Origin: a virus
Lineage: Duplodnaviria > Heunggongvirae > Uroviricota > Caudoviricetes
Direction: 5' to 3' (one strand)
Virus record (IMG/VR): IMGVR_UViG_3300009180_002437
DNA length: 64,000 bases
Below the pieces are notes generated by a model, which was not told the DNA's origin, ran no database searches, and saw only the letters and a list, made by a program, of their open reading frames with translations. Made by a program: the position numbers and the translations under genes. Shown piece by piece: positions 1,199 to 59,420 of the stretch. Positions within the stretch are counted from its first letter, which is position 1; every line of letters begins with the position of its first letter.

Positions 1199-1996
1199 AT
1201 GAAACAAATTTTTAAATTGGCAGTTGTAGCAGGTCTTATCGCAACCACAGTTGGTTGTCAGCGTATTGAAACCGGCGAAGTAGGTGTACGAGTTGGCTTT
1301 GATAAACAAGTAAAACCAGGCGAGTTGCAACCAGGTTCTTTTAATCAAACACTAATTGGTGATGTACTTACATTCCCTGTTCGTGATGTATCAGTTAAGA
1401 TTGATGACATGACTCCGCTTGCCAAAGACAACAGCACTATGAAAGACATGGATGTTACTGTTATCTATAACATCAATCCAACGCAAGTTAGCGAATTGTA
1501 TGTTAGCAAGAACCGTAGCTTTCACGTTAAGCACAATGGTGACACTTACTTGATGTACAACTACATTTTCAATGCCGCACGAAATGCTGCTTACAAAGCT
1601 GCTCGTAAGTATGACGCATTGACTATGAACGACAGTCGTGCGTTAATGGAACAGGATATGAAAGACATCATTGCCAAGACCTTGGCAGATGAAAATCTTG
1701 CTGGTTCAATTACAGTAAGCCAAGTTCTTATTCGTGCGCTAACTCCAGCAGACTCAGTGGTTGCGTCAGCCAATGAATTGGTACGTTCTAAGAACGAGCT
1801 GTTGCAAAAGGAGGTTGAAGTCAAAACAGCCGAAGCAGAATCTCGTCGTATGGCAGCACTTACCAATCAAAGCTCGGCCAGTATTGCTTACATGAATGCT
1901 CAGGCTGCGTTAAACATCTCCGAAGGTGTCAAGAACGGTAAGGTGCAGACCATTATTGTTCCCAGCAACATGACCGGCTTGATGATTGGCAAGTAA
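1199..1996 (+). CDS. SPFH/band-7 (stomatin/prohibitin/HflKC-like) lipoprotein
   Basis: Lipobox LIATTVGC. SPFH-like core (GEVGVRVGFDKQ... followed by a coiled-coil C-terminal region). Shine-Dalgarno site aagga. Confidence 0.6.
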   Translation: MKQIFKLAVVAGLIATTVGCQRIETGEVGVRVGFDKQVKPGELQPGSFNQTLIGDVLTFPVRDVSVKIDDMTPLAKDNSTMKDMDVTVIYNINPTQVSELYVSKNRSFHVKHNGDTYLMYNYIFNAARNAAYKAARKYDALTMNDSRALMEQDMKDIIAKTLADENLAGSITVSQVLIRALTPADSVVASANELVRSKNELLQKEVEVKTAEAESRRMAALTNQSSASIAYMNAQAALNISEGVKNGKVQTIIVPSNMTGLMIGK

Positions 1997-6032: not shown

Positions 6033-6104
6033 GTAGTTGTAGTATGTAGTTAAGTTTAACTTTTATTTTAATCAACTTTGAAAGGCATCTTAGAAAGGCA
6101 TCTT

Positions 6105-6428
6105 ATGAAACAAGAAAATTTATTTAAAGTAGCAGGTACCTCCAACCATAATGGAGAAATTAAAGTACGTTTTGCCAATGACTTGGTATCGCGTATTAAG
6201 GCCCTGCATCGCGCAGGTCACACTGATGTTAACCTCGTTGAGCTACCCAAGCCAATGACCAAACTGGAAGCAGTTCAGTATCTGCAGTCAGTTGGATACA
6301 ATCAAGGTGACGTTGGTTATATCGTATCAGCTAAATTGGCTGAGAAAACCAAAATCGCCAAGAAAGGCGAAGTTAAGGTTAAGTCTGCAAAGGTTAGTAA
6401 ACCAGCTAAAGTCGCTGAAACAGTTTAA
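6105..6428 (+). CDS. small lysine-rich (histone-like tail) protein, probably highly expressed
   Basis: ATG at 6105 preceded by aaagg. The C-terminus is KAK-rich (KTKIAKKGEVKVKSAKVSKPAKV). It is flanked by a perfect promoter and a terminator. Confidence 0.5.
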   Translation: MKQENLFKVAGTSNHNGEIKVRFANDLVSRIKALHRAGHTDVNLVELPKPMTKLEAVQYLQSVGYNQGDVGYIVSAKLAEKTKIAKKGEVKVKSAKVSKPAKVAETV

Positions 6429-6441
6429 TTTTTCAGCAAAA

Positions 6442-6464
6442 AGGCGGCTAACAAGCCGCTTTTC
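6442..6464 (+). terminator. rho-independent terminator
   Basis: Stem aGGCGGCT with loop aaca and stem AGCCGCtt, followed by TTTT. Confidence 0.6.
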
Positions 6465-6487
6465 CACGAACTCGAATAATTAAATAT

Positions 6488-6730
6488 ATGAGTGAACAGG
6501 AAGTAGTGGAACCATTTCGGTTAGCCATCATGGAGATCATGATGATTTTACATAAACATGGTATTAGGGAAGTACACATAGGTGCTATGATGCGCCTAGT
6601 CGGCGTGGAAGAAGAAGATGCAAAAATCTGTGATGATGAGCGTATTATGTTAACCGAAGACTTTACCGAATATGTAAATCAAGTGTTGGCGTTATCATCT
6701 GTCAGCAGTGAAAATCAAACTTTACATTAA
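6488..6730 (+). CDS. hypothetical protein
   Basis: An 80-aa ORF packed tightly on the same strand. Confidence 0.35.
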   Translation: MSEQEVVEPFRLAIMEIMMILHKHGIREVHIGAMMRLVGVEEEDAKICDDERIMLTEDFTEYVNQVLALSSVSSENQTLH

Positions 6731-7033: not shown

Positions 7034-7222
7034 ATGTCAACACATGAACAAATCGTAGCAGCTTACGAAAACTACTTGGCTGAAAATGCTAAGTTCAGCG
7101 ACAAAGGTGTTAAAGCCGCCGCCGCCCGTGCCAGAAAATCTCTACAGGAAATCGCCAAGGCTGTCAAAGTACGCCGTGCTGAGATCACCACAGAAAAAGA
7201 AGCACTGACTCCAGCGAAGTAA
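7034..7222 (+). CDS. small basic alpha-helical protein (possible DNA-binding)
   Basis: A 62-aa product, KAAAARARKSLQEIAKAVKVRRAE. Shine-Dalgarno site aaagga. Confidence 0.4.
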   Translation: MSTHEQIVAAYENYLAENAKFSDKGVKAAAARARKSLQEIAKAVKVRRAEITTEKEALTPAK

Positions 7223-8428: not shown

Positions 8429-8821
8429 ATGACAATGCATCTACTCCCCCCGCTGTATTCGACCACAGGCAAAAAGAAAGGTCGCTATAAATTCGCATCT
8501 GCTGAGCAAAAACAGCAAGCTGAAGCTAATAAGGAAGAGTGGCAGCGTAAACTAAATGAATTTAATCGACTATCACCCTCTGTAAGGACGTCAAAGAGCC
8601 CTATGCCCACACTAAGCAAATCGCTACCCCGTATTCCCACCAGCCGTCAAACAGCTCACATTGAGTCCCTAGTAACCACCTGGGGTCCTTGCCTTAAGGT
8701 AGAAGATATGCAGTACACTGGCAACAAAATTAAGGGCATTGGCACAATGCATAAATCAAATGCGGTGCCGGTATTCAGTGACGAAGAAGCTGTTGAAATT
8801 TCACAAATGCGGAGAGGCTAA
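8429..8821 (+). CDS. hypothetical basic protein (possibly translated from a leaderless mRNA)
   Basis: A 130-aa ORF with no Shine-Dalgarno site. Its start codon abuts the promoter -10 element. Confidence 0.4.
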   Translation: MTMHLLPPLYSTTGKKKGRYKFASAEQKQQAEANKEEWQRKLNEFNRLSPSVRTSKSPMPTLSKSLPRIPTSRQTAHIESLVTTWGPCLKVEDMQYTGNKIKGIGTMHKSNAVPVFSDEEAVEISQMRRG

Positions 8822-8822
8822 G

Positions 8823-9272
8823 ATGAGCGTAACAGATAATACAACCGATTTATTTACAACTTTATTTGATTTTGATTCGACCAGTGAGCTTTTGAAGACT
8901 AAACCAACTGCACCTCGCCCAACATGTGTAAATCATGGATGTAGTAAGCCAGTTGCATCGGATGGTAAGCGTTGGCGTATTCATTGCGGACATTGCCAAG
9001 GTGCAAGTTACGGAAGAAACCCTCACGCAGCCGGAGTTACCCCATTAAAAACAGGTATTTGTTCAAATATTGATGGACATTTAGGATTTCCCTGTGTGAT
9101 AGACTGGAAAAAAGTTCCAGAATTTGCTAAAGGCATGACTGAAATTGACCATATTGACGGCAATCATTTGAATAATTCTATTAGCAACCTTAAAGAACTA
9201 TGTCCCATTTGTCATAAACTTAAAGGACAACGAGCCGGCGATTTTAAACGCGGTAGATACACACATAAATAA
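8823..9272 (+). CDS. HNH endonuclease
   Basis: HNH motif HIDGNHLNNSISNLKELCPICH plus upstream Cys/His pairs. Shine-Dalgarno site GGAGAGG. Confidence 0.65.
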   Translation: MSVTDNTTDLFTTLFDFDSTSELLKTKPTAPRPTCVNHGCSKPVASDGKRWRIHCGHCQGASYGRNPHAAGVTPLKTGICSNIDGHLGFPCVIDWKKVPEFAKGMTEIDHIDGNHLNNSISNLKELCPICHKLKGQRAGDFKRGRYTHK

Positions 9273-9301
9273 CTGCTCATAACAGGAGATAATAAAACAA
9301 A

Positions 9302-9523
9302 TTGAGTAAATCAGATGATGTAATTAAAATGGAGGGTGTAATCACCGAAGTATTACGAAACACGAATTATCGTGTTAAAATTGAAAACATTGAAAATCCC
9401 ATTCTCGCTACACTAAGCGGGAGAATACGCCAAAATAATATCAAAGTACTTACAGGCGACAGAGTACAGTTAGATATATCACCCTACGACCTATCTCGTG
9501 GTAGAATTACACGTAGGCTATGA
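9302..9523 (+). CDS. infA: translation initiation factor IF-1 homolog (S1-like OB fold)
   Basis: The 73-aa product aligns along its length with bacterial IF-1 (GVITEVLRNTNYRVKIENIENPILATLSGRIRQNNIKVLTGDRVQLDISPYDLSRGRITRR). It uses a TTG start, with AGGAG upstream. Confidence 0.7.
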   Translation: MSKSDDVIKMEGVITEVLRNTNYRVKIENIENPILATLSGRIRQNNIKVLTGDRVQLDISPYDLSRGRITRRL

Positions 9524-10083
9524 TTTTAATAAATACCTACATGAGAGATTTATTAAACTTAGTGGAAGCAGCAACCGTTTCAGCTAAACTGGAAACTACC
9601 CCACTACCCTACGCACATAAAGATCTGGCTCCCATAATGAGCGCAGACACAATAGAATACCACTACGAGCACCTGGCTAAAGGCTACGCTAAAAAGTACA
9701 ATGCCGGCGAAGGTGATGCCGATTTCAACCGTGCTGGCAGCTTCTTACACAACAAATTCTTTCCCCAATTGCAAGCACCAAAAGGTGCCAACCGTCCCAA
9801 GGGTGCGGTGCTAGAACTCATTGAAGCTAACTTCAAAACTTACGAAGATTTCAAGGTAGCGTTCAAAGAAGCTGCCATGAAGATTCAGGGATCGGGTTGG
9901 GTTTATCTCAGCACAGGTGGAACTATTAAAACCATACGAAATCATCAGGTTCGTACCGATATTTGTGTACTGGTTGACTGGTGGGAACATTCATGGTCGA
10001 CGGATTACAAGTGGGATAAAGAAAAGTATCTAGATAATATCTGGAAAATTATCAACTGGAACGTATGTTCGGAGAGAATATGA
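9520..10083 (+). CDS. sodB: Fe/Mn superoxide dismutase-like protein
   Basis: [21 protein letters not shown] aligns with the SodB N-terminus, the GSGWVYL block is present, and D-WWEH matches the Asp/His metal-ligand motif D-xWEHAYY. His residues sit at the ligand positions. Confidence 0.65.
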
Positions 10084-10406
10084 TCACACTAACTGAAAAC
10101 GCCGCGATTAAAATTAAAGATTTATTAGCAGAAGAAAACAATCCCAAGCTAAAACTTCGTGTATTCGTTCAGGGCGGCGGATGCAGTGGAATGCAGACAG
10201 GCTTTACCATGGATGAAGAACAAGCTGACGATGACTGGGAGGTCGAAGTCAATGGCGTTCATTTGTTAGTAGATAGTATGAGTAGTAATTATTTAAAAGG
10301 TTCAACCGTGGATTATCGCGATGATATCAATGGATCTGCCTTTGTTATCACTGGCATGGAAGCCACAACGACATGTGGCTGTGGTAGTAGTTTTTCACCA
10401 TATTAA
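10080..10406 (+). CDS. erpA: A-type Fe-S cluster carrier (IscA/ErpA/HesB family)
   Basis: [24 protein letters not shown] ... C-terminal TCGCGSSF, matching ErpA end to end. ATGA overlap with the SOD-like gene. Confidence 0.75.
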
Positions 10407-16993: not shown

Positions 16994-17461
16994 ATGACAA
17001 CAAAAGTCTATAAAACCGCAAAAGGTAAACCAGTAGACCTTGGAGCATTACGTTTACAAAACGAAAATGTTCGAGCAGTTGGTAATATGAATGTAAATGC
17101 CCGTGGGGATAGGATCGACGCTGATGGCAACGTAATTGACCCTCGTAATCAACAGATTCAACGACGAATACAACGACAAACTAATGTGGCCAGCGGACCG
17201 GTACACTCAAGCTCACGTGCTCAACAAGCGGAACAGGTAGCAGCAGAAAATCCAGTGATGCCCACACGACCAGTAGCACCGGCTGCGGATCCACTCCCTA
17301 TTCCAGCGGCTCCTCCGGTTGCAACTAGGGAAACAATCGTTACCCAAGATAATGCATTTGCCGCGGCAATGGGACGTACCAAGACAGTTACACAGACGTT
17401 AGAATTAACCGAACGTCAGAAATTAGAAAATCAAATAGCGCAAGCAAAAAAGGGAAAATGA
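16994..17461 (+). CDS. hypothetical protein
   Basis: A 155-aa ORF. Shine-Dalgarno site caggag. Confidence 0.35.
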   Translation: MTTKVYKTAKGKPVDLGALRLQNENVRAVGNMNVNARGDRIDADGNVIDPRNQQIQRRIQRQTNVASGPVHSSSRAQQAEQVAAENPVMPTRPVAPAADPLPIPAAPPVATRETIVTQDNAFAAAMGRTKTVTQTLELTERQKLENQIAQAKKGK

Positions 17462-17853
17462 AAGCACAGTACGCACCACATAAAGTAGAAAAGCAGAAAC
17501 TTAAAGTATTACAAAACAATGTTCTGGTATCGGATATGGTGTTTGATGAACGTATCAGTACAGGCGGTATCTTACTGTTAAATGACAATGGCAAAGGCAA
17601 TGGTATTCGCCCACGCTGGGGTCGTGTATACGCAGTAGGTCCAGAACAAAAAGATGTTAACGTAGGTGATTGGGTATTGGTAGCACATGGTCGTTGGACT
17701 AGGGGTTTAGATCTCGAAGACGAAAATGGCAAATTAACCGTTCGTAAGATTGATCCTAAAGATATCCTACTAGTATCAGATGACGAAGAGTGCCCCACAG
17801 TCGAAGGCATTAGTTCTGCCGTGCATGTAGATCGTAAGGAAATGCCTAATTAA
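17458..17853 (+). CDS. GroES/gp31-like co-chaperonin
   Basis: Cpn10 pattern LKVLQNNVLV...ISTGGILL...WGRVYAVGPE...VNVGDWVLV...DILLV. Confidence 0.5.
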   Translation: MKAQYAPHKVEKQKLKVLQNNVLVSDMVFDERISTGGILLLNDNGKGNGIRPRWGRVYAVGPEQKDVNVGDWVLVAHGRWTRGLDLEDENGKLTVRKIDPKDILLVSDDEECPTVEGISSAVHVDRKEMPN

Positions 17854-17864
17854 ACCAAAGTGTT

Positions 17865-17893
17865 TGCTTTTATCATCTGCTCCATGTATAATT
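17865..17893 (+). promoter_or_regulatory. sigma70-type promoter (TTGCTT-17-TATAAT)
   Basis: TATAAT at 17888-17893. Confidence 0.4.
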
Positions 17894-17926
17894 GTATTAT
17901 GAATTTTAAAAAGCATGGAGCATTAA

Positions 17927-18853
17927 ATGAATGATTTATGGACAGAAAAGTACAGACCCAATACAGTCGATGGATATGTTTTTACAGACGATGCACAACG
18001 ACAGCAAGTACAACATTGGATTAAGCAAGGCAGTATCCCACACTTATTACTAAGTGGTAGTCCCGGCACTGGTAAAACTACCCTGGCTAAATTACTGATC
18101 AATGAGCTTGGGGTAGATGAATTTGATGTGCTATACTCAAATGGATCTAAAGATGCCCGTAAACTAGATTGGGTGGACAAACTGATTGGCTTTTGTAGTA
18201 CTATGCCTTTTGGTAAATTTAAAGTGGTATTGGTTGATGAAGCGGATTTTATGAATCCAAATTCTGTACAACCAGCACTTAGAAACCTAATGGAAGACTA
18301 CAGTGAAAGCGTCAGATTTATCCTGACCTGTAACTATCCCAATAAGATACTGCCAGCATTGCACAGTCGGTGTCAAGGGTTTCACATGCAAAAGACAGAT
18401 CTTGTGGAATTTACAGCTCGTCTAGCAACTGTATTGATCAGCGAAGAAATAGATTTTGACTTGCCCACACTTGATTTATTTGTAACAGCCACATATCCAG
18501 ATCTACGTAAATCGTTAAATTTGCTACAGGCTAATTCAACAACAGGAAAACTTGTTGAGCCCAGTTCAACTGAACAGTCAGTTGATAATTGGAGACTGCA
18601 AGCAGTATCGTTATTCAAAGCTGGTAATATCAATGAAGCACGTAAGGTTATCTGCAATCAAGCAAACATTGAAGATATGGATAGCATGTATCGATGGATG
18701 TATGATAACCTTTCGCTATGGAGTGACACACAGGAAGGACAAGACCGAGCGATTATTATTATTAGAAACTCGCTGGCTAACGTTCATTTGATGTCAGATC
18801 AAGAAATCAACTTATCAGCAACGCTTTGCGAATTAACTCAAATAGGAAATTAA
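17927..18853 (+). CDS. clamp-loader ATPase (RFC small-subunit / T4 gp44-like)
   Basis: Walker A LLLSGSPGTGKTT, DEAD-box-like VVLVDEADFM, and the SRC motif LHSRCQGF. Confidence 0.75.
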   Translation: MNDLWTEKYRPNTVDGYVFTDDAQRQQVQHWIKQGSIPHLLLSGSPGTGKTTLAKLLINELGVDEFDVLYSNGSKDARKLDWVDKLIGFCSTMPFGKFKVVLVDEADFMNPNSVQPALRNLMEDYSESVRFILTCNYPNKILPALHSRCQGFHMQKTDLVEFTARLATVLISEEIDFDLPTLDLFVTATYPDLRKSLNLLQANSTTGKLVEPSSTEQSVDNWRLQAVSLFKAGNINEARKVICNQANIEDMDSMYRWMYDNLSLWSDTQEGQDRAIIIIRNSLANVHLMSDQEINLSATLCELTQIGN

Positions 18854-19156
18854 ATGCGATACTTAGTTATCATGTATATTAAAAAGCCCGATGGGCAAGT
18901 AGATGAAGCAACAACTGTTACAAAATCACTTAAATCAAAAGACTTGTCTATGGGTAGTGTAATCCTTGACTTTAAAGAAAAGAAAATTGTTAAAGCCAGC
19001 TTTAGTGGCACACTGGCTGAGAAACGCTGGGATAAGATTCGAGATTTTTATTACGAGTTTTACCCAAAGTACATTGACCTGCTGGAAGCAGCCTATCAAA
19101 CTATAGAAGAGATTCAAAATGAAGTATCTACCGAAACAGAAAATAATCCTAACTGA
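18854..19156 (+). CDS. possible clamp-loader small subunit (gp62-like)
   Basis: A 100-aa ORF directly after the clamp-loader ATPase. The call rests on position only. Confidence 0.3.
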   Translation: MRYLVIMYIKKPDGQVDEATTVTKSLKSKDLSMGSVILDFKEKKIVKASFSGTLAEKRWDKIRDFYYEFYPKYIDLLEAAYQTIEEIQNEVSTETENNPN

Positions 19157-19724
19157 TTGTGACGGAGTATGTTTAGATTGGGAATGGGCATTTAATATCT
19201 GGATGTATCAACACGGATTTGAAGAAATTCCTGGTGCCAAACTAAACTATGACATGTCTGTACGTTATGGCATTCCGCGTGAACAAGTAGTTAAACTGAT
19301 CCGCATTTTTAATGAAAGTGCGTCTATCGGATTCTTGCCGCCCATGCGTGATGCCATGTATTATATCAAAAGATTGCATGAAGAATTTGGTTATAAGTTT
19401 CATGCCATTACTTCATTGAGTTTAGATCCTAATGCTCAGAAGCTAAGGGAAATGAATCTTCATAAGTTATTTGGTCCTACCGCATTTGAGCGTATTGTAT
19501 GTTTAGATACTGGTGCTGATAAAGATGAGGCGTTGGCAGAATATAAAGACTCCGGATATTATTGGATTGAAGATAAGTGGGCCAATGCCGAAGCCGGCTA
19601 TAAAGCCGGCCTCAGGTGTATCGTGTTAGAACATGGTCATAATATGTACGAGTATCATCCAGAAATTACTATCTTAAAAAACTGGAAAACAATATTTGAC
19701 CATATTACCGATCAGTCGGAATAA
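19119..19724 (+). CDS. HAD-family 5'(3')-deoxyribonucleotidase-like phosphatase
   Basis: N-terminal motif ILTDCDGV (DxDGV), plus downstream HAD motifs. Confidence 0.5.
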   Translation: MKYLPKQKIILTDCDGVCLDWEWAFNIWMYQHGFEEIPGAKLNYDMSVRYGIPREQVVKLIRIFNESASIGFLPPMRDAMYYIKRLHEEFGYKFHAITSLSLDPNAQKLREMNLHKLFGPTAFERIVCLDTGADKDEALAEYKDSGYYWIEDKWANAEAGYKAGLRCIVLEHGHNMYEYHPEITILKNWKTIFDHITDQSE

Positions 19725-20446
19725 AGGCGAAGCACGGAATCAATGATTCTGTGCCGCTGTATGTCGCGACTATCTAGCTCGCACACAGCTATTCCATTTA
19801 CACCTCCTTTCAACAATCTTTGGCATAAATCTGCGAGGCCGTTGTTACCTTTAGTGCGGTCAGCTTGTTCAATATCTCCCGTAATGACGATTTTACTGCC
19901 TTCGCCGATACGTGTCATTAGCATCTTACATTGTGCCGGAGTAGCATTCTGCATCTCATCAGCTATAATGTATGCGTTTTTAAAGGTTCTACCCCTCATA
20001 AACGCAAGTGGTGCTATCTCTATTTTTTGATCCTCTAACATACCAGCAATATCCTGCTGACGATAATATTCACGAAGAATATCAGTTAAGGGCCTTACCC
20101 ATGGATCCATCTTTTGGTTTAAATCTCCTGGTAAAAATCCATGTTTTTCATCTTCTACGCCAACTGCTGGTCGTGTTAGGATTATACGATCAACTTCTCC
20201 TTCGCGGAATGCCTTAACAGCGGCTAGCATAGCAAGGTAAGTTTTACCTGTACCAGCTGGACCTGCTGTGATTACAATATGTTGACTTTCATCTTGCAAT
20301 GCCAATACCAATCGCTCTTGATTTCGTGTACGGGGCACGATATCAATGGGACGTTGTTTTAAGGGTTTTGCTTGATTGAAGTTTATTGTATTTTCTTGAA
20401 ATACCGTATCACGGCGTTGTGATTTTACTGCTTTGTGTCTACTCAT
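19712..20446 (-). CDS. phoH: PhoH-like ATPase
   Basis: Walker A TAGPAGTGKTYLAM and Walker B IIADEMQN. The ATG at 20446 has GAGG 7 nt upstream. The ORF-track start at 20497 is a TTG. Confidence 0.8.
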   Translation of the reverse strand: MSRHKAVKSQRRDTVFQENTINFNQAKPLKQRPIDIVPRTRNQERLVLALQDESQHIVITAGPAGTGKTYLAMLAAVKAFREGEVDRIILTRPAVGVEDEKHGFLPGDLNQKMDPWVRPLTDILREYYRQQDIAGMLEDQKIEIAPLAFMRGRTFKNAYIIADEMQNATPAQCKMLMTRIGEGSKIVITGDIEQADRTKGNNGLADLCQRLLKGGVNGIAVCELDSRDIQRHRIIDSVLRLYSD

Positions 20447-20631
20447 TAAAGCCTCATGTAGAAGTAAGTTACTGCTATCAGCACCTTGCTGACCCAAGTA
20501 TTTACATCAGTGTATTTTTATATTCTATGAGTAGTAAAAAGGTGTTATAAGTTGATAAGTATTAGGCTATACTGTAAATTCTTACATTCCCAATATTATG
20601 CCATATTCGCAACTACACTAAATACTTGACT

Positions 20632-21246
20632 ATGGCAAACAAAGCATTCGATTCAGAAATATTCAAAGATCACCAAGATTATTGGCAAGTGGCCCAAAAC
20701 ATCAAGGACATATACCTATCCGAGGGTACGCTATTGACCCTGTTAGACTTCGAGCGTGTATTAGATTCCATGGATCTATACGCATTTAAAAACTGGGATA
20801 TCGGTGAGCTGGTACAAGGCCCAACAGTGGGAAAATATCACGTTAGTTGTATATTTCTCTGGCCCGAAAACTTAATGCCCGATCCACGTGGTGGACGTAG
20901 ATTATTACCGTTTGATTGTACTGTAAAGTACAAGAAAACTGACATGAAGATTCCCATTAAAATTGATGATCCTAGCGATTATCGCCCGGGAACAAAAATA
21001 GCAAGAATCATTGAGAAAAAGGTATGGTTGGTGGAAATCACCATGCCCAAAACTTTGATGAGCGATATACGTACAGGCAGTATTGATCTTGAAGAACAGG
21101 AACTTGATCTACAAGAATTAGATAACGCTTATTCGGTTGATGAACGTGGTACTGCACCTAGCGCACCGCCTGGAGCAGCACCGGCCCCAGCGGCACCTGC
21201 TGCTGCCGCAGCAGCCGCACCGGCCGCACCCCCCACTGGCGCATAA
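20632..21246 (+). CDS. hypothetical protein with a C-terminal Ala/Pro low-complexity tail
   Basis: The frame opens at 20626; the first ATG is at 20632. The C-terminus is APSAPPGAAPAPAAPAAAAAAAPAAPP. Confidence 0.4.
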   Translation: MANKAFDSEIFKDHQDYWQVAQNIKDIYLSEGTLLTLLDFERVLDSMDLYAFKNWDIGELVQGPTVGKYHVSCIFLWPENLMPDPRGGRRLLPFDCTVKYKKTDMKIPIKIDDPSDYRPGTKIARIIEKKVWLVEITMPKTLMSDIRTGSIDLEEQELDLQELDNAYSVDERGTAPSAPPGAAPAPAAPAAAAAAAPAAPPTGA

Positions 21247-21248
21247 AA

Positions 21249-21806
21249 ATGACTAATAAACCATCAAATTTTAACTTTGTTTTCGAAGGATTAGGATATA
21301 AGGATATGGATGGCTTGATCAAGCCTATTGTCCATGTTGATGAATTTACCAGTAAAATGGGTGACGATGATGATGTCATTGTATTATCTTTTTTCCTACG
21401 TGATCCTACCGCAGCCAAGGACCTAATGAATTGGTTTGAACGTGGCTATGATTTTATTATTGATGCTGATCGTAGCCCAGGTGAAATCAAAACAAATAGA
21501 TACCTAGTATTTGTTGAAATACGTCGACGCAGTACAGCCGGCGCACATGTCAACCGATTATTAGAAGACCTGAGTACACTAACAGAACATGATGTAGAAG
21601 ATTGGAAAATGGTGTACGATGGTAAGGAATTTCCCTTTAGCCAGGAAGAGTTTGAAAAAATAGTTCCACTATCGCCAAAAGCATATCGCGAGGCACACGA
21701 TGGTGAATTAAATGAAATGCGTACCGCAGCTGGATTACCAGTAAAAACATATTATGAGCAGGATAACGATATTAAATCAATACAATCTGCTGCGGGGATA
21801 CTGTAA
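21249..21806 (+). CDS. hypothetical protein
   Basis: A 185-aa ORF. Confidence 0.35.
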   Translation: MTNKPSNFNFVFEGLGYKDMDGLIKPIVHVDEFTSKMGDDDDVIVLSFFLRDPTAAKDLMNWFERGYDFIIDADRSPGEIKTNRYLVFVEIRRRSTAGAHVNRLLEDLSTLTEHDVEDWKMVYDGKEFPFSQEEFEKIVPLSPKAYREAHDGELNEMRTAAGLPVKTYYEQDNDIKSIQSAAGIL

Positions 21807-22036
21807 TGAAAATGTCAGAAATATTAAGAATAATAGCGGACACCATTGAGCCACTAGAAGAGTACGATCCTGCAGAAGTTACTCCTGACAATCCTGTAGA
21901 AGACCCTGCTCCTGGGATCGCATTGATCGTTCACCATGAACCGGAAATGGAACCTGAAATGCAGCAGGCCCCCGAACAAGAACTTCCTGCTGGACTAAGT
22001 GATATACTTAGGCTCGCCGGTGGCCCTGGTTGCTAG
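21806..22036 (+). CDS. small acidic protein
   Basis: A 76-aa ORF. Confidence 0.3.
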   Translation: MKMSEILRIIADTIEPLEEYDPAEVTPDNPVEDPAPGIALIVHHEPEMEPEMQQAPEQELPAGLSDILRLAGGPGC

Positions 22037-22054
22037 AATCTGGTGTCTATAAAT

Positions 22055-22315
22055 TTATTTTACTGAATCAAATATCTTTTTTTGTTCTATATACCAGTTA
22101 TTCCACGCATCAACTTTGTAACTACATTCATGATATTTTCCATAGTTTGTAGTTACATTAGATATTAAAACACTTAGTTTATTAGTTATAGGAGCAGCAG
22201 TAAGCTGTTCACATGCTGTGGTCAATGATGGCGGAACAGATGGAAAATTTCTTTCAACCGGCGTTGCGACACAGCCTGTTAAAAATAATAAAGATAAAAT
22301 TATAACTGATTTCAT
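22055..22315 (-). CDS. o-spanin-like outer-membrane lipoprotein
   Basis: Lipobox LLFLTGC, a Pro-rich segment, several Cys residues, and a 4-nt overlap with the upstream TM/coiled-coil gene. Confidence 0.5.
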   Translation of the reverse strand: MKSVIILSLLFLTGCVATPVERNFPSVPPSLTTACEQLTAAPITNKLSVLISNVTTNYGKYHECSYKVDAWNNWYIEQKKIFDSVK

Positions 22316-22758
22316 TTCTTAACTCCTACTAATGCTGATTGATTTAGTATGTCAATAGCCAATGGATCAACTTTACAAGTTAAGTCAAGTTTAGCAGCAT
22401 TTTTGGCAATGCGATTTTTAACTACATACTGAACTTCTTTCACAATTTTAACACGATCAACATACACCGTTTCAATTTTGCCATTAGCTTCAGCGGCCTC
22501 CTTCTCTGCCTTAGCAACCTTTATTTCAAGTTCGGCAACTCTTGCTGCCCATTTGGCTTCATTTGCAATTCCGCCTTCTATCCACACACAAAATACAATA
22601 AGCACGGCACTAGCAATACGAATTACAAATGCATTGGTTGTGATAAAAGGAATCATTTTAAGAATGTAGCTGGCCCCAAATGCTAGTATAGCAAATATTA
22701 ACAATAGATGATATACAAAATCAGGTAATAAAGATAACAGCCACATTATTTGCCACAT
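22312..22758 (-). CDS. i-spanin-like protein (N-terminal TM segments plus coiled coil)
   Basis: Hydrophobic N-terminus followed by AKWAARVAELEIKVAKAEKEAAEANGKIE. Shine-Dalgarno site AGGGG, one nt after the endolysin stop. Confidence 0.45.
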   Translation of the reverse strand: MWQIMWLLSLLPDFVYHLLLIFAILAFGASYILKMIPFITTNAFVIRIASAVLIVFCVWIEGGIANEAKWAARVAELEIKVAKAEKEAAEANGKIETVYVDRVKIVKEVQYVVKNRIAKNAAKLDLTCKVDPLAIDILNQSALVGVKK

Positions 22759-22759
22759 A

Positions 22760-23389
22760 TCATGCCCCTAGTACGTGACAAGCATGTTGATAGTGTTTTT
22801 CTCTGTCAGCAAGGCCAATGGTGCCACCATTGATTCGTTTAGTTAATGTTAAAATATCACCTGCGTCAGCAAATTGATTTAGTCCATTAGTTTCCCAGAA
22901 CCAACATGCGCTCTGAACAGCGCCTTCAAATGTACCTAGGTACTCTGGCAATTGTTCAACAGGAGTTTCTATACTTTCCGCAAAGCGTGTATAATTATCT
23001 TTGCCTGTTAACTGGATAAGACCCTTGCCTGCGTAACGCCATCCATCACCACTTTCTTCTGGACCATTGCCCATGCGGTCACAATAAGCACGATTGGCTA
23101 TCATTTCTTGATTGTGTGCGTATTGCTCTGCAATAGCAGGCGGAAAACGACTAGGCCAGACACGGCTTAATGATGCTGCTGTGTAGTTTAAGTTTTCTTT
23201 TAATGCTGTAAAATTAGCACTCTCGTGGGCACATTGAGCTAAAAAAGCAGCTACCCTAGGTACTGTGTTAATTTCGTAATCAGGTAATATACGTGATATA
23301 GCATCATACCACTCTGCCACATACGGATTGTTAGGTATAATTTGTGCCAGTTGTTCTGGTGTAAAGTTGAATGCGAATCCTTGACTCAT
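22760..23389 (-). CDS. endolysin, glycoside hydrolase family 19
   Basis: GH19 signature blocks AAFLAQCAHESANF and RYAGKGLIQLTGKDNY. Confidence 0.8.
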   Translation of the reverse strand: MSQGFAFNFTPEQLAQIIPNNPYVAEWYDAISRILPDYEINTVPRVAAFLAQCAHESANFTALKENLNYTAASLSRVWPSRFPPAIAEQYAHNQEMIANRAYCDRMGNGPEESGDGWRYAGKGLIQLTGKDNYTRFAESIETPVEQLPEYLGTFEGAVQSACWFWETNGLNQFADAGDILTLTKRINGGTIGLADREKHYQHACHVLGA

Positions 23390-23400
23390 TTAATTTTCCT

Positions 23401-23757
23401 TTATTTTTTAGGTACTAGGTGACCAAACTGAGCTTCAGCACGGCGTGTGCCTGGACCAGTAATTCCATCTGCTGTGATCTTAGCTCCGGCAGCAATTAGT
23501 TCTTTTTGACGTTTCTGAACAGCAGCATCAAAACCAGGTGGTTTAGCAGCTGGCTTGGCAGGTGCCTTAGCTGGTACTGCTGTGCCTTCGTATTTCTTGT
23601 GTACCTTAATAGTACGGCAAGTTTGCTTAGTTGTCCCATCTTTATTTAATACAACATGACCAGCTTTGTCTTTAACTGGATTACATACTTGTTTAGTTTC
23701 GGCGGCATTAGCAGAAGATGCTATGCCTAATATGATTATTGCAAATAGAGTTTTCAT
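23401..23757 (-). CDS. secreted protein with a C-terminal PG_binding_1-like motif
   Basis: Signal peptide MKTLFAIIILGIASSANA. C-terminal LIAAGAKITADGITGPGTRRAEAQFG. Confidence 0.4.
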   Translation of the reverse strand: MKTLFAIIILGIASSANAAETKQVCNPVKDKAGHVVLNKDGTTKQTCRTIKVHKKYEGTAVPAKAPAKPAAKPPGFDAAVQKRQKELIAAGAKITADGITGPGTRRAEAQFGHLVPKK

Positions 23758-23766
23758 TATTATTCC

Positions 23767-24291
23767 TTATAAGGGTTGATCTACTTGTGCTGCTGGACCT
23801 GGTTTGCCAGCATACATAGTTTTTGTTGGTGCGCTGTTAAACCCGGGAGATGGACTGTTAAATCCATTTGAGGGACTATTGAATCCAGGTGATGGGCTAC
23901 CAAATCCAGATGATGGACTGTTAAGCCCGGTTGACGGACTGTTAAATCCTGACGATGGGCTACCATATCCATTTGATGGATTATTACCATACCCTGTATT
24001 CATGCCATTGTTGACCCCGGCTAATTTTTCTTGGGTACGCCCAAATGCCGCTACTCCTATTATGGCACCCATTGCCATATGAAATAGTCCTGCTCCTTGA
24101 AGAGTGATTGGTTGCCATTGTGTTTCAACACGGCCACCATGTGCTGCTTGTATTAAACTCCATAGTATAGGAAATACCACAAAATCACACATACAGACAA
24201 ACATATACATCCACCCCATCATAGGGCGCCATTTGCTGTTCATCCAATCTTCTTTTTTCTTTTCGCTTTCAGATTGTACTGTTTCTGACAT
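23767..24291 (-). CDS. putative holin (2 TM) with a repetitive C-terminal tail
   Basis: Charged N-terminus, two TM helices, then about 7 repeats of NSPSxGF. It heads the lysis cassette. Shine-Dalgarno site GAGGA. Confidence 0.45.
   Translation of the reverse strand: MSETVQSESEKKKEDWMNSKWRPMMGWMYMFVCMCDFVVFPILWSLIQAAHGGRVETQWQPITLQGAGLFHMAMGAIIGVAAFGRTQEKLAGVNNGMNTGYGNNPSNGYGSPSSGFNSPSTGLNSPSSGFGSPSPGFNSPSNGFNSPSPGFNSAPTKTMYAGKPGPAAQVDQPL
23812..24003. repeat. 24-bp tandem coding repeat (about 7 copies) inside the putative holin gene
   Basis: The NSPSxGF periodicity also produces the antisense GLLNPxDG ORF at 23804..24082. Confidence 0.6.
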
Positions 24292-24341
24292 ACTAAATCC
24301 TCGAATTGTACAGATATTTATCTAGATTCACCAAAGCTAGA

Positions 24342-24370
24342 TTGACATAAATATCGTTTTACTATACAAT
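24342..24370 (+). promoter_or_regulatory. sigma70-type promoter TTGACA-17-TACAAT
   Basis: TTGACA at 24342-24347 and TACAAT at 24365-24370. Confidence 0.5.
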
Positions 24371-24402
24371 ACACCCATGACTATCTTATACCCTGTTACC
24401 AT

Positions 24403-25200
24403 ATGAGTAATCCTTACGATACACTGGGCGTGCCTAAAAACGCCACTACTGACGAAATTAAAAAGGCTTACCGCAAGTTGGCTAGTCAACATCATCCTGA
24501 CAAAGGTGGCGATACCAAAAAATTCCAAGACATACAAACAGCTTACGAGACACTGGGTGACGAACAAAAACGTGCTCAGTATGATAGACCACAGCCGCAA
24601 GGTGTGCATTTTGAATTTGGTGGACCGGGAGGATTCGATCTCGGTAGTATATTCAATATGTTCGGGGCGAAGGGATTTCAAAATCATCCTCCTGGTCAGC
24701 CACCAAGACAACAGCACACACGCATGAGCTTGTGGATTACCTTATCAGACATTGCATCGGGCGGAAAACGTACAGTAGCCATTGGCGGTAGCCACGGTAG
24801 TATGAACATTGAAATCGAAATCCCCATGGGTATCAATGATGGAGACAATGTTCAGTATGGAGGAATTGGTCCGGGAAATACGGATCTAATTATTAACTTC
24901 CGTATTCATCCTCACCCCAAATGGCAACGTAATGGATTGACACTAATTGCCGAACAAACGGTATCCATCTGGGACTGTTTAGTAGGCGGTGAAACAATTG
25001 TAAAAGATTTACTGAATAATCAATATACTATTAGTGTTCCCCCATTAACTCAACCAGGGAGTTTATTAAGATTAAAAGACAAAGGGTTGCGTAACAGGCA
25101 AGGTCAGTCCGGAGATCTACTGATTAGGATTCAGGCTAAAATGCCAGAATCTATCAGCCAAGAGCTATCGGAACTGATTAAAGAGCAGCAGGAAAAATAG
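24403..25200 (+). CDS. DnaJ-like co-chaperone (J domain plus DnaJ C-terminal-like domain, no zinc finger)
   Basis: J-domain DTLGVPKNATTDEIKKAYRKLASQHHPDKGG with the HPD motif, and a C-terminal beta-rich domain. Confidence 0.65.
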   Translation: MSNPYDTLGVPKNATTDEIKKAYRKLASQHHPDKGGDTKKFQDIQTAYETLGDEQKRAQYDRPQPQGVHFEFGGPGGFDLGSIFNMFGAKGFQNHPPGQPPRQQHTRMSLWITLSDIASGGKRTVAIGGSHGSMNIEIEIPMGINDGDNVQYGGIGPGNTDLIINFRIHPHPKWQRNGLTLIAEQTVSIWDCLVGGETIVKDLLNNQYTISVPPLTQPGSLLRLKDKGLRNRQGQSGDLLIRIQAKMPESISQELSELIKEQQEK

Positions 25201-25209
25201 TCTTATCAC

Positions 25210-25238
25210 TTGTATTTAAAATATTTTTACTATATACT
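25210..25238 (+). promoter_or_regulatory. sigma70-type promoter TTGTAT-17-TATACT
   Basis: TTGTAT at 25210-25215 and TATACT at 25233-25238. Confidence 0.45.
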
Positions 25239-25263
25239 ATAACGGTACTGGATAAAGGATACC

Positions 25264-27543
25264 ATGCAAAACAACAAAGAAATTGAAGCAATTGTAGGGC
25301 AGGCGGTTTCGATTGCTCGGATTAAACATCACGAGTATGTGCTAACCGAACATATATTATTGGCCTTAATACGCCACATTCCTTTCCGCAAAGTACTGGA
25401 AGGATTCGGTACAAGTATTGCACTCATGGACGAGGAATTAGATGTCTATTTGGACAGTTTAACCAGTATAGTTACATCTAAGTCAGAATTTCAACCACGT
25501 AAAACTAACGCCCTTGAACGTTGTTTTAATCGGGCTATGACACAGGTGTTATTTACTGGCCGCCGTTCAGTAACCACATTTGATTTGTATCTTGCTATGA
25601 TGAGTGAGACAAACAGTCACGCACATTACTTCCTGATGAAGTATGGAGTTAAGAAAGCCGAGTTTATGGAATACTGGCAGCAAAATTATAAAGCTGAAGA
25701 TGCCGAGGTTAGTGCTTCTGAAGCTGATGCCATCTTAACTGAATTTTGTACAAACCTAACCAAAATGGCTACTGAAGATAAGTTAGAGCCAATGATTGGC
25801 CGCTCAGCTGAACTAGACGAAATCATTACTGTACTGGCTCGAAAGTTTAAAGCTAACGTACTAATGGTGGGCGATCCGGGTGTAGGCAAAACTGCCATCG
25901 CAGAAGGGCTTGCCCAGGAAATTGTAAACAACCGTGTACCCGCATTCCTTAACGGACATGAAGTATGGAGTTTGGAAATCGGCTCATTGTTAGCCGGCAG
26001 TAAGTATCGTGGCGAATTTGAGGAAAAGTTTAAACAGGTCATTGGTGCATTAGAAGCCAAGAAAAATTGTATCTTATTTGTTGATGAAGCACATACAATG
26101 AAAGGCGCTGGCGCAAGTTCACAATCATCACTAGACTTTGCTAATATGCTAAAGCCAGCTATTACCAAGGGTTATCTTAAGGTAATTGCGTCAACTACCT
26201 GGGAAGAATTCTATGAGTCATTTGAAAAGGATCGTGCGCTAATGCGTCGATTCCATCGTGTGTCCATTGACGAACCCACGCCAGAAGTAACGGAGCAAAT
26301 CTTAATCGGCTTATCACCTCGCTTGGAAAAATTCCACGATGTGTTGATTGATACTGATGCTATTAAAGCAGCAGTAGACTTGTCGGGTCGTTACATACAT
26401 GATCGCAAGAATCCAGATAAGTCAATTGACTTGCTAGACGGTGCATGTGCCAAGGAACGTGTTAAAGATATAGGCACTACTACTGTGACTAAAGACATGA
26501 TCATGGCACAGTTGAGTCGTATTACTGAGGTTCCCATGGATCGTTTACAAAACGAACGTTCGGCTAATATTGTGGAACTGGAAGGTAATATTAAACAGAA
26601 GTTGTATGGCCAAGACGAAGCTGTTAATTCGGTACTTGAGCGGGTATACATTAACTTCTCGGGTATTGGTAACGAAAACAAACCAATTGCCAGCTTCTTA
26701 TTCTTGGGACCAACTGGCACAGGTAAGACAGAATTGGCCAAGTTATTGGCTGAGCATTTAGATATGCAGTTGTTGAAATATGACATGAGTGAGTTCCAGG
26801 AGAAGCATACTGTTAGCTCATTGATTGGTGCTCCCCCAGGATACGTTGGGTTTGAAGATGGTAATGTGGGTGGTGGAAAACTTATTAGTGATGTCAGTAA
26901 GAACCCTTATTCAATCTTGTTGTTTGATGAAATTGAAAAGGCACATCCGGATGTAGTTAACCTTATGTTGCAAATGTTGGATGAAGCTCGCATCACCAGT
27001 GCCAATGGTAAAACTGTTAACCTGAAGAACTGCATCATTATTATGACCAGTAACTTAGGTGCTCGCGACAATGAGAATAACAACATTGGCTTTGGGCAGA
27101 CACTGGAAAAGACAGGATCAGAACACAAGGCAATGAAGGATTTCTTTAAACCTGAATTACGTAATCGTATTGATCAAATCTGTCGCTTTAAGAAACTAGA
27201 TACACTGGCTGTTAAGAAAATTGTTGTTAAATTTGTTGATCAACTACAAACCAGTTTAAGCACAAAGAATATTCGTCTTAACTTATCCGAGCCAGTAATC
27301 GACATGCTGGTTGAAAAAGGCTATGATAACAAGATGGGTGCTCGACCATTAAATCGTAAGATTGATGAACTTATTCGCGTACCATTGAGTAAGAAAATTC
27401 TCTTTGAACGATTAAGTGACTGTGTAATTACAGCGGACATGGTTAATGATCAAATTGACTTTATCATCATACCTAATCCCGCATTAGCTATTGTCGACAA
27501 CTCAGGAATTATTTTACTTGATGGCGAATCTTCCACCGTTTAA
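25264..27543 (+). CDS. clpA: ClpA-like AAA+ unfoldase (two AAA modules, N-domain, IGF ClpP-docking loop)
   Basis: Walker A GDPGVGKTAIAEGLAQ and FLGPTGTGKTELAKLLA. The N-domain is ClpA-like. NIGFGQ sits at the position of the ClpA IGL loop. Confidence 0.8.
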   Translation: MQNNKEIEAIVGQAVSIARIKHHEYVLTEHILLALIRHIPFRKVLEGFGTSIALMDEELDVYLDSLTSIVTSKSEFQPRKTNALERCFNRAMTQVLFTGRRSVTTFDLYLAMMSETNSHAHYFLMKYGVKKAEFMEYWQQNYKAEDAEVSASEADAILTEFCTNLTKMATEDKLEPMIGRSAELDEIITVLARKFKANVLMVGDPGVGKTAIAEGLAQEIVNNRVPAFLNGHEVWSLEIGSLLAGSKYRGEFEEKFKQVIGALEAKKNCILFVDEAHTMKGAGASSQSSLDFANMLKPAITKGYLKVIASTTWEEFYESFEKDRALMRRFHRVSIDEPTPEVTEQILIGLSPRLEKFHDVLIDTDAIKAAVDLSGRYIHDRKNPDKSIDLLDGACAKERVKDIGTTTVTKDMIMAQLSRITEVPMDRLQNERSANIVELEGNIKQKLYGQDEAVNSVLERVYINFSGIGNENKPIASFLFLGPTGTGKTELAKLLAEHLDMQLLKYDMSEFQEKHTVSSLIGAPPGYVGFEDGNVGGGKLISDVSKNPYSILLFDEIEKAHPDVVNLMLQMLDEARITSANGKTVNLKNCIIIMTSNLGARDNENNNIGFGQTLEKTGSEHKAMKDFFKPELRNRIDQICRFKKLDTLAVKKIVVKFVDQLQTSLSTKNIRLNLSEPVIDMLVEKGYDNKMGARPLNRKIDELIRVPLSKKILFERLSDCVITADMVNDQIDFIIIPNPALAIVDNSGIILLDGESSTV

Positions 27544-56703: not shown

Positions 56704-57107
56704 AATATTATAATGTCGCAATTAACACCGAGCCCGGACTAGGCTCATTCCAAGACGATCGTGGATCTATCGTAGATATCTTTTATAAAAAGGCCATCAA
56801 TCACGGATGTATCATTAGTAATAATCCCGGTGCCGTTCGTGGTAATCACTATCATAATCATACTGTACAGTATACCTATGTTATTGCAGGTGACCTAACT
56901 TATTACTCACAACCAGCAGACAAATCCGAACCAGTATCCACTTACGTGGCAGTTACTGGAGACGTCATTATCAGTGATCCCAAAGAAATTCATGCTATGA
57001 AAGCTGGTGAGTTTGGATGTGTTTTTATAGCCTTTGCCGAAGGCCCACGTGGTGGCGAAGATTACGAAACAGATACAGTAAGAGTTGATTCTATTATTCC
57101 TGAATGA
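56700..57107 (+). CDS. cupin-fold sugar 3,4-ketoisomerase (FdtA/WxcM-like)
   Basis: DDRGSIVDIFYKK ... AVRGNHYHNH matches FdtA E-RGS...RG-H-H. Confidence 0.55.
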   Translation: MKYYNVAINTEPGLGSFQDDRGSIVDIFYKKAINHGCIISNNPGAVRGNHYHNHTVQYTYVIAGDLTYYSQPADKSEPVSTYVAVTGDVIISDPKEIHAMKAGEFGCVFIAFAEGPRGGEDYETDTVRVDSIIPE

Positions 57108-59365: not shown

Positions 59366-59390
59366 CAAAAATCTATGGGTAATGTATAAT
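59362..59390 (+). promoter_or_regulatory. perfect consensus sigma70 promoter TTGACA-17-TATAAT (overlaps the upstream stop codon)
   Basis: TTGACA at 59362-59367 and TATAAT at 59385-59390. AGGAG before the ATG at 59421. Confidence 0.6.
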
Positions 59391-59420
59391 TTCTAAATAC
59401 ATTATCCCATAGGAGCTCTA

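Follow-up and report, generated by a model that had tools for sequence, protein, structure and literature searches.

A stretch of viral DNA 64,000 nucleotides in length (IMG/VR record IMGVR_UViG_3300009180_002437; hereafter the window) encodes a zinc-finger-less DnaJ-like protein and, immediately downstream on the same strand, a ClpA-like unfoldase. The two genes probably constitute an operon that is read from a σ70-type promoter and whose ClpA serves as a phage unfoldase in partnership with ClpP, with other protein-quality-control genes of the window in an accessory capacity. An initial annotation, made from the sequence of the window and without database searches, had grouped these two genes with a GroES-like gene and a Bax-inhibitor-1 (BI-1)/YccA-like gene as a phage-borne proteostasis toolkit. 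All four open reading frames (ORFs) are present exactly where that annotation had placed them, and its interpretation is partly supported overall. The sites and genes that carry the argument are as follows, with positions counted from the first nucleotide of the window.

Positions 24342 to 24370, plus strand: σ70-type promoter-like site, TTGACA-17-TACAAT, with 11 of 12 consensus matches.
Positions 24403 to 25200, plus strand: class B (zinc-finger-less) J-domain protein of 265 amino acids, with Pfam DnaJ and DnaJ_C matches.
Positions 24493 to 24501, plus strand: codons of the HPD tripeptide (residues 31–33), the Hsp70-stimulating motif, located by alignment of homologs.
Positions 25264 to 27543, plus strand: ClpA-type class I Hsp100 unfoldase of 759 amino acids with an N-domain, D1 and D2 AAA+ modules and no middle domain, assigned by profile and structure-sequence alignment.
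Positions 27085 to 27093, plus strand: codons of the IGF tripeptide (residues 608–610) in a D2 loop, aligned with the IGL loop by which E. coli ClpA docks on ClpP.

The ClpA-like protein aligns with E. coli ClpA (PDB 1ksf) in one stretch of 716 residues (phage residues 4–719, E. coli residues 3–727; E 2.6e-174), and Pfam Clp_N is matched at residues 14–59. ClpB and ClpC match only as two separate stretches, because the phage protein has no middle domain. The D1 motifs GDPGVGKT, DEAH, KYRG, ASTT and MRRF all align with E. coli ClpA, as do GPTGTGKT, DEIEKAH, GYVG, TSN, RNR and GARP in D2, and both Walker A/B pairs, both pore loops, sensors 1 and 2, and the arginine fingers are kept. The likeness to E. 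coli ClpA (PDB 1ksf and 6w1z) takes in the N-domain/D1/D2 architecture, the catalytic motifs, and a docking loop of the same length and position, which bears out the initial description of a ClpA with two AAA modules, an N-domain, and IGF at the IGL position. The differences are the IGF itself where E. coli has IGL, a four-residue insertion, and the operon shared with a J-protein.

Conservation among relatives points in the same direction. In 75 distinct relatives, with identities down to 61%, the catalytic motifs are invariant or conservatively substituted, which argues for purifying selection on them. Loss of sensor or arginine-finger residues, raised at the outset as a sign that the enzyme might be inactive, has not occurred, and these residues are invariant across the 75 relatives. 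Residues I608, G609, and F610 are likewise invariant in all 75, while the residues flanking them in the loop vary. The same IGF occurs in the ClpAs of Pseudomonas phage PA5oct, Sinorhizobium phage Phosso, and Agrobacterium phage Atu_ph07; the ClpAs of Vibrio phage 2.275.O and of XbC2, which have no adjacent DnaJ, carry IGV or MGM instead. A second signature is an insertion of four residues after the D2 GYVG loop, which the window protein shares with those of PA5oct, Phosso, and Atu_ph07 but not with E. coli ClpA or the two phage ClpAs that have no neighboring DnaJ. Among the ClpAs compared, this insertion is limited to those linked to DnaJ, and the point is a new one.

Profile scores place the protein within the ClpA type and at some distance from the bacterial enzyme. 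TIGR02639 (ClpA) is the best-scoring equivalog model and matches in one stretch at 792 bits, under its cutoff of 993, and PRK11034 gives 651 bits against a cutoff of 1350. By the NCBI criterion, these scores indicate a divergent ClpA-type protein, not an orthologous ClpA. Membership in PHROG 4871, “ATP-dependent protease”, is supported at 2.9e-232.

The DnaJ-like protein matches Pfam DnaJ over residues 3–61 (4.5e-24) and DnaJ_C over residues 107–248 (2.7e-26), the two being joined by a Gly/Phe-rich linker at residues 62–100, and its C-terminal client-binding domain is two-lobed. A Pfam scan of the protein found no zinc-finger domain, and the sequence has a single cysteine. The combination of a J domain and a DnaJ C-terminal domain with no zinc finger defines a class B J-domain protein; the initial annotation had likewise called it a zinc-finger-less DnaJ homolog. 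Among solved structures, the zinc-finger-less Thermus DnaJ2 (PDB 6psi) is the closest and aligns over the full length, and the likeness extends to E. coli CbpA and yeast Sis1, which also have an HPD J domain, a G/F linker, and a C-terminal client domain with no zinc finger. In NCBIfam, the protein scores far under both the DnaJ and the CbpA equivalog cutoffs, and the DnaJ of PA5oct is 46% identical over the J domain alone. H31, P32, and D33 are nevertheless invariant in 75 of 75 distinct homologs. A phage J-protein with the same presumed need for host DnaK is known in Rki of phage RB43, which is reportedly a J-domain protein with no DnaJ C-terminal domain. The window protein differs in being a complete Hsp40 that is always coupled to ClpA.

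The linkage of the two genes is strict. In 85 of 85 loci, and then in 79 of 79 further loci (164 in all), dnaJ lies directly 5′ of clpA on the same strand, and this holds even though J-protein identity across the loci falls to 34%. The promoter-like site lies in the divergent gap between a minus-strand holin gene and the dnaJ-like gene. Sites with at least 10 of 12 matches to TTGACA-17-TATAAT were found upstream of dnaJ homologs in 93 of 115 distinct regions, compared with 5 of 159 intragenic controls. A scan of the window found no terminator-like site between dnaJ and clpA. The conserved site and the lack of a terminator-like site between the genes make the pair look like an operon transcribed by the host RNA polymerase. 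The strict linkage, the conserved promoter, and the signature of DnaJ-linked ClpAs are modest new points.

On the minus strand, a complete lysis cassette occupies window positions 22055–24291, between the virion genes and dnaJ. It comprises a GTA_holin_3TM holin with a long Gly/Ser/Asn/Pro-rich tail, a secreted protein of 118 amino acids, a GH19 endolysin, and a spanin-like pair whose 86-residue member has a lipobox (…FLTGC). In PA5oct, unlike the window, no lysis cassette is present at the position 5′ of dnaJ.

One alternative takes the J-protein alone as its subject, as a counter-defence decoy that would compete with host DnaJ in order to blunt sensors such as bNACHT25, or that would titrate DnaK. 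Host DnaJ is reported to be needed for phage sensing by bNACHT25 (PMC12169576), and RB43 Rki reportedly binds DnaK and stabilizes σ32 (Perrody et al. 2012); an early-type promoter would also suit such a role. On the other side, a complete client-binding C-terminal domain and a constant pairing with ClpA would be superfluous for a simple decoy, and the presence of bNACHT25-type sensors in the host is unsupported. This explanation is regarded as quite improbable.

The phage origin of the window is clear from profile matches to a clamp loader, DNA polymerase B, virion proteins, and the lysis cassette. Identical ClpA sequences occur on metagenome contigs from freshwater lakes. A megablast search with the DnaJ-ClpA region found no DNA-level match among GenBank phages, and relatives surfaced only by protein-level search, where the nearest proteins to the ClpA belong to the jumbo phages of the PA5oct group, Phosso, and Atu_ph07 (37–40% identity). 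Comparison with the whole PA5oct genome showed collinearity from 187.7 to 232 kb, with about 25 genes in common at 30–56% identity. The shared order runs chaperonin, clamp loader, PhoH (opposite strand), virion proteins, DnaJ, ClpA, DNA polymerase B, QueE, and RNase H. Since the window is collinear with PA5oct at the protein level, its source would be an uncultured freshwater jumbo myophage distantly related to the lineage of that Pseudomonas phage, with which MIJ3 is also grouped (Arenbergviridae).

An exact look-up of the proteins at the ends of the window added 9.75 kb upstream and 9.76 kb downstream, so that about 83.5 kb of this genome was read, and a scan of metagenome DNA supplied a further 5.4 kb or so from a contig that is 92% identical. 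In IMG/VR, at least 184 to 290 contigs of up to 364 kb have a close ClpA relative (61–95% identity), and the near-complete related contigs are 300–360 kb in size. The nearest relative of some length is IMGVR_UViG_3300003375_000013 (177 kb), and JGI contig Ga0209088_10000092 (65.6 kb) reaches about 40 kb past the sequence that was read. Another contig, IMGVR_UViG_3300027749_002876 (L381, L384; 524 kb), holds two different ClpA copies of the clade, 87% and 83% identical to the query, and is for this reason probably a chimeric or concatenated assembly.

The chaperone/Clp set is characteristic of the lineage: annotations of cultured jumbo phages already include it, and surveys mention it. In PA5oct, a chaperonin (gp0290), DnaJ (gp0297), and ClpA (gp0298) are annotated in the same order as in the window, and the PA5oct ClpA shares both the IGF loop and the D2 insertion at an identity of only 40%. 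Within the 25 kb upstream of this region, PA5oct also has ClpX, Hsp20, ClpS, a BI-1-like protein, FtsH, a ligase, and ClpP, in that order, and its FtsH and ClpP have been detected by mass spectrometry according to the record annotation. From the ClpX-to-ClpP region, the part of the window that is collinear with PA5oct has only a canonical BI-1, which is relocated, and a homolog of the superoxide dismutase. In Atu_ph07, DnaJ (gp293) lies directly 5′ of ClpA (gp292), and in Phosso a peptide deformylase gene stands between DnaJ and ClpA. The ClpAs of these two phages are 37–38% identical to that of the window, their genomes are about 470–490 kb in size, and their hosts are soil alphaproteobacteria. 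The paper on Atu_ph07 described seven Clp-family genes (ClpA, ClpB, ClpX, ClpP, and ClpS being named) together with DnaJ, and noted that ClpA is conserved in Rak2-like phages. A survey of jumbo phages (Iyer et al. 2021) listed Hsp10 (in groups 2/3), DnaJ, ClpA/ClpX, ClpP, and ClpS and proposed the recruitment of host partners, and in a 2025 paper ClpA belongs to the core gene set of a lineage of aquatic jumbo phages.

The sequences show gene identity, the integrity and conservation of motifs, synteny, and the promoter motif, while everything concerning partners, substrates, and timing is inferred. The C-terminal domain of the J-protein would bind non-native clients, and its HPD motif would drive the ATPase of host DnaK (Hsp70). 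The ClpA homolog is predicted to be an active hexameric unfoldase whose IGF loops would dock on ClpP and feed it unfolded proteins. The ClpP in question would most probably be encoded by the phage, as it is in relatives, or would be that of the host if this genome has none. Together, the J-protein and ClpA could add folding and clearance capacity during infection and possibly carry out selective degradation.

Several observations weigh against this reading of a ClpP-partnered operon. An overall promoter scan of the region was not enriched over shuffled sequences (9 sites found, 10.4 expected), and the promoter argument therefore rests on the conservation of one site. The adjacency of dnaJ and clpA shows co-expression, not physical cooperation. 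To our knowledge, no structural route couples a ClpA that lacks the middle (M) domain to DnaK, which makes direct cooperation of the two operon products the least supported step. Neither Clp nor DnaJ is taken up in the papers on PA5oct and MIJ3 or in a 2026 review of jumbo phages, and the surveys and phage papers that name such genes report no experiments on a phage ClpA or a class B J-protein. The operon is also flanked by virion-protein genes, both here and in PA5oct, an arrangement that fits an assembly role with no proteolysis as well. Finally, tblastn searches with E. coli and PA5oct proteins found neither ClpP nor ClpS in the roughly 83.5 kb or in the 5 kb more of the 92%-identical contig, in agreement with the initial remark that no ClpP is visible in the window, and the slots that ClpP occupies in relatives (after a gene for a 143-residue protein or after an SPFH gene) are filled by other genes here.

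The flanking virion genes lend themselves to the idea that ClpA and the J-protein act independently of any peptidase, as an unfoldase/holdase for the assembly of large virions or for the translocation of head proteins. The ClpAs of Vibrio phage 2.275.O and XbC2 are located among tail-sheath genes, and their IGV or MGM loops suggest that a ClpP-free role does exist in some phages. Wickner and colleagues are said to have found in 1994 that E. coli ClpA alone remodels P1 RepA, as DnaK/DnaJ do. A role in assembly has also been proposed by Iyer et al. Set against these points, the retention of IGF in 75 of 75 relatives and in the three further phage ClpAs linked to DnaJ, with drift in the neighboring residues, would be hard to explain if ClpP docking were dispensable, and the σ70-type promoter points to a unit that is separate from the late virion genes. 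An assembly role with no proteolysis is a serious rival that is weakened by the strict retention of IGF; as an account of the operon, it is judged rather unlikely.

The ClpP search covered other partners, and ClpX, FtsH, Hsp20, DnaK, GrpE, and GroEL were likewise not found in the window and its flanks. As DnaK, GrpE, and GroEL are among these, both co-chaperones would have to use host ATPases. A 229-residue ORF near the expected ClpP slot was considered as a divergent ClpP and rejected, having no recorded Pfam family, no tblastn match, and no Ser-His-Asp motifs. In the wider lineage, true ClpP was found in at least 572 viral contigs, with 60–68% identity to E. coli ClpP and with the Ser and His motifs kept. 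About half of the best 80 ClpP loci are flanked by homologs of genes that lie inside or just outside the window, and the usual order is metallophosphatase, the 143-residue protein, sometimes SPFH, ClpP, ligase, MazG-like protein, a 148-residue protein, and BI-1. When the ClpP-bearing loci were compared with the extended window by megablast, nothing overlapped that would tie them to this genome.

At least two contigs carry both the DnaJ-ClpA pair of the clade and a catalytically intact ClpP, the two being about 60 kb apart: IMGVR_UViG_3300043418_000114 (364 kb), which also has a ClpS homolog 1.2 kb 5′ of ClpP, and IMGVR_UViG_3300047476_000779 (70 kb). A comparison of the first ClpP list (best 80) with three ClpA lists had yielded no such contig, and both emerged after re-ranking. 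Another related locus has the order ClpX-S21-Hsp20-ClpS...ClpP, as in PA5oct. Because ClpP is common in the lineage and DnaJ-ClpA and ClpP occur on the same contigs, the lineage would appear commonly to have its own ClpAPS system, and a phage-encoded partner would be at least as likely as host ClpP.

Among related contigs (L129, positions 6085–6717; L251; L127; L255), a PP-loop gene whose family is TilS-like, as it is in PA5oct and MIJ3, lies near ClpP, and the ClpX-S21-Hsp20-ClpS block also occurs. One related locus has a DnaK 75% identical to that of E. coli and another has a GroEL at 70%; these two may be genuine genes of the phages or may reflect host sequence contaminating the set of viral contigs.

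The initial annotation had raised recruitment of the host's ClpP, and a version of this idea would have a phage with no ClpP of its own redirect host ClpP against host or defence proteins early in infection. The invariant IGF, the searches in which ClpP and ClpS were not found, and the filled ClpP slots are all compatible with it. The host-type promoter, moreover, suggests transcription by unmodified host RNA polymerase, and the likeness of the clade ClpPs to E. coli ClpP suggests that the docking surfaces are probably interchangeable. Yet PA5oct and Atu_ph07 encode both ClpP and ClpS, the two clade contigs with both proteins place ClpP beyond the distance read here, and the size of related contigs implies that most of this genome may lie outside the sequence that was read. 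Recruitment of host ClpP is no longer the default, and as an explanation it is rather unlikely.

The GroES-like gene belongs to another part of the window.

Positions 17458 to 17853, plus strand: GroES/Cpn10-fold co-chaperonin homolog of 131 amino acids, assigned by Pfam Cpn10, PHROG 931/3188, and hhalign.

It overlaps the stop codon of the preceding ORF by 4 bases and lies just 5′ of the clamp-loader gene (17927–18853), inside the replication block and 7 kb from DnaJ-ClpA. The match to Pfam Cpn10 is marginal (21.8 bits, cutoff 21.1). Searching solved structures with the sequence alone gave chance matches only. PHROG 931, “head morphogenesis”, is matched at 3e-13 and PHROG 3188, “co-chaperonin GroES”, at 1e-5. 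A profile built from 12 homologs aligns with E. coli GroES at an hhalign probability of 95.6% (E 1.2e-8; GroES residues 1–88; 79 aligned columns), and the GroES-like call made from the window alone was therefore sound. In the mobile-loop region, GGILL falls on the GroES GGIVL, and the loop is longer and bears the family-specific GIRPRW. GIRPRW, just after the mobile-loop region, and HGRW(T/S)R, in the second half of the fold, are invariant in the family and missing from bacterial GroES. Homologs occur in 33 related loci, and the “chaperonin” gp0290 at the collinear position in PA5oct is 43–45% identical.

As with T4 gp31 and the Hsp10 of jumbo phages, this is a small Cpn10-fold protein with no phage GroEL beside it and with a predicted recruitment of host GroEL for capsid folding. 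T4 gp31 was itself considered as the closest relative and rejected, since the window profile is nearer bacterial GroES than gp31, for which hhalign gave 4% with an approximate gp31 sequence. The GroES-like protein is best viewed as the product of a separate conserved gene that, like T4 gp31, would most likely cap host GroEL so that structural proteins of the phage can fold.

Two membrane-associated proteins complete the accessory set.

Positions 60201 to 60905, plus strand: TMBIM/Bax-inhibitor-1 multi-pass membrane protein of 234 amino acids, with a Pfam Bax1-I match (5e-53) at residues 24–229.
Positions 1199 to 1996, plus strand: SPFH/Band-7 protein with a lipoprotein-type N-terminus (...TTVGC), with a Pfam Band_7 match (3.8e-21).

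The BI-1 protein shows about seven hydrophobic segments by hydropathy and aligns with BsYetJ (4pgr) at 4e-10, with its YDTQ and LYLDFIN on the BsYetJ motifs that include the di-aspartyl pH sensor (D171/D195). The corresponding aspartates, D190 and D217, are invariant in 124 homologs. With the Bax1-I match and these aspartates, the BI-1 assignment does not dissolve into that of a generic membrane protein. The likeness to the TMBIM family (BsYetJ, YccA, TMBIM5, and poxvirus GAAP, a TMBIM homolog of a eukaryotic virus) consists of the Bax1-I fold, some seven membrane segments, and the aspartate pair. The window protein differs in being phage-borne, in not being a YccA equivalog (34.1 bits to NF007765, cutoff 353), and in having no FtsH adjacent in the sequence read.

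YccA of E. coli is a family member that inhibits or modulates FtsH, and the initial annotation had extended this to the phage protein. The family membership stands; the low YccA equivalog score and the lack of an FtsH in the window leave the FtsH link as a suggestion at the level of the family. JGI's automatic name for the homologs, “FtsH-binding integral membrane protein”, is a family label and not evidence, and no NCBI names are recorded for them. The “FtsH-interacting integral membrane protein” of PA5oct was considered as a counterpart and rejected, having a sub-threshold Bax1-I match and no direct similarity to the window protein.

The BI-1 gene has 520 relatives in IMG/VR. The best 120 protein matches come without exception from metagenomes, with identities of 77% or more and contigs of no more than 369 kb. 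The family was found neither in PHROGs v4 nor in annotated cultured phages, where only unannotated fragment records matched, and a literature search found no paper on phage BI-1. BI-1 is very common in freshwater viral contigs, and this abundance was previously undocumented.

The position of the BI-1 gene, which is 33 kb from DnaJ-ClpA, shifts among relatives. A phosphoribosyltransferase gene and QueE flank it in the window and in the nearest relatives; nine loci have it flanked by the GroES-like gene and the clamp loader instead, and in 25 of 80 BI-1 loci it is found on the same strand 0.6–4 kb downstream of a true ClpP. SPFH homologs stand directly 5′ of ClpP in relatives, in the order SPFH-ClpP-ligase-MazG-BI-1, and the SPFH gene, which the initial annotation did not include, is a possible further member of a membrane-proteostasis set.

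Considering this scatter, it is conceivable that no functional toolkit exists and that the GroES-like gene, DnaJ-ClpA, BI-1, and SPFH act independently, with BI-1 being derived from a host and serving, for example, as an ion-leak channel that tunes membrane potential or the timing of lysis. Distances of 7 to 33 kb separate the genes, relatives place BI-1 in at least three different contexts, BI-1 with its invariant di-Asp sensor is nearer BsYetJ than YccA, and no FtsH was found in the window. The placement of ClpP shortly upstream of BI-1 in 25 of the 80 loci speaks against full independence, as do the SPFH genes directly 5′ of ClpP in several relatives, the nine loci with BI-1 beside the GroES-like gene, and the weak BI-1-like gene that abuts FtsH in PA5oct. 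In mitochondria, TMBIM5 inhibits the FtsH-type m-AAA protease (PMC9379554), which is also in favor of a proteolytic connection. Full independence is a substantial possibility, although it is not the favored one.

What can be said of the toolkit is that its four genes are intact. The grouping is thematic, DnaJ-ClpA is the sole linked unit, and the arrangement was already annotated in PA5oct; the term was overstated for the reason that only this one pair is linked. The ties of BI-1 and SPFH to proteostasis genes are repeated but loose, and at most suggestive. BI-1 would be an independent membrane gene whose product probably serves as a channel for a pH-sensitive cation leak, as a modulator of membrane proteolysis of the FtsH type, or as both; a role as an ion channel alone is just as plausible.

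A more elaborate version of the ClpP-partnered reading would be a form of phage triage. The viral Hsp40, together with host DnaK, would capture selected proteins of the host or misfolded ones and hand them to a viral ClpA for destruction by ClpP, the D2 insertion would be adaptive, and the TMBIM and SPFH proteins would reprogram FtsH-type proteolysis or ion balance. We know of no DnaK-to-ClpAP route in bacteria, where only ClpB and ClpC, which bear an M-domain, couple to Hsp70 or to adaptors. Such a scheme is speculative and is considered unlikely.

Other genes in and around the window bear on the phage and its host. An OmpA-family protein is encoded at positions 251–790, and a Gram-negative porin of 402 amino acids (Pfam Porin_4/Porin_1) immediately upstream of it in the upstream flank (L097, positions 8777–9985). 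Outer-membrane proteins are unusual phage cargo and suggest a Gram-negative, possibly betaproteobacterial, host. Positions 9302–10406 hold host-like genes for an IF1/eIF-1A-like protein, an Fe/Mn superoxide dismutase, and an Fe-S cluster biosynthesis (HesB/IscA-like) protein; the dismutase is 37% identical to PA5oct gp0261, which comes after ClpS in that phage. Genes of the QueD/PTPS-like (53640–54284), QueE-like (7-carboxy-7-deazaguanine synthase; 61290–62276), and GTP cyclohydrolase-like (51494–52186) kinds, which also occur in PA5oct, suggest 7-deazaguanine modification of the phage DNA. A sugar-nucleotide cluster at 54647–59975 (methyltransferase, cupin, epimerases/dehydratases, and a UDP-glucose dehydrogenase-like protein) is followed by the phosphoribosyltransferase gene directly 5′ of BI-1. 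A 62-residue ORF at 7034–7222 has a recorded match to Pfam Hc1, the chlamydial histone H1-like protein. Downstream, the 92%-identical relative (L536, reverse strand, about 5.4 kb past L182) has an acyl-carrier-protein-like ORF and a fatty-acid-desaturase-like membrane protein with histidine boxes, both recognized by eye from translations only.

Jumbo phages are under development for therapy, and relatives of PA5oct such as Paride kill dormant Pseudomonas. The chaperone and protease genes of these phages have been listed in surveys, and their function in the present case is read from sequence. The gene set of this window is an expected feature of its lineage and not a surprise. The invariable linkage of DnaJ to an IGF-bearing ClpA across hundreds of environmental genomes and three cultured lineages suggests that selection acts on the pair, and PA5oct, similarly arranged and equipped with a ClpP, ClpS, and FtsH of its own, would offer a tractable system in which to study how viruses remodel bacterial proteostasis.

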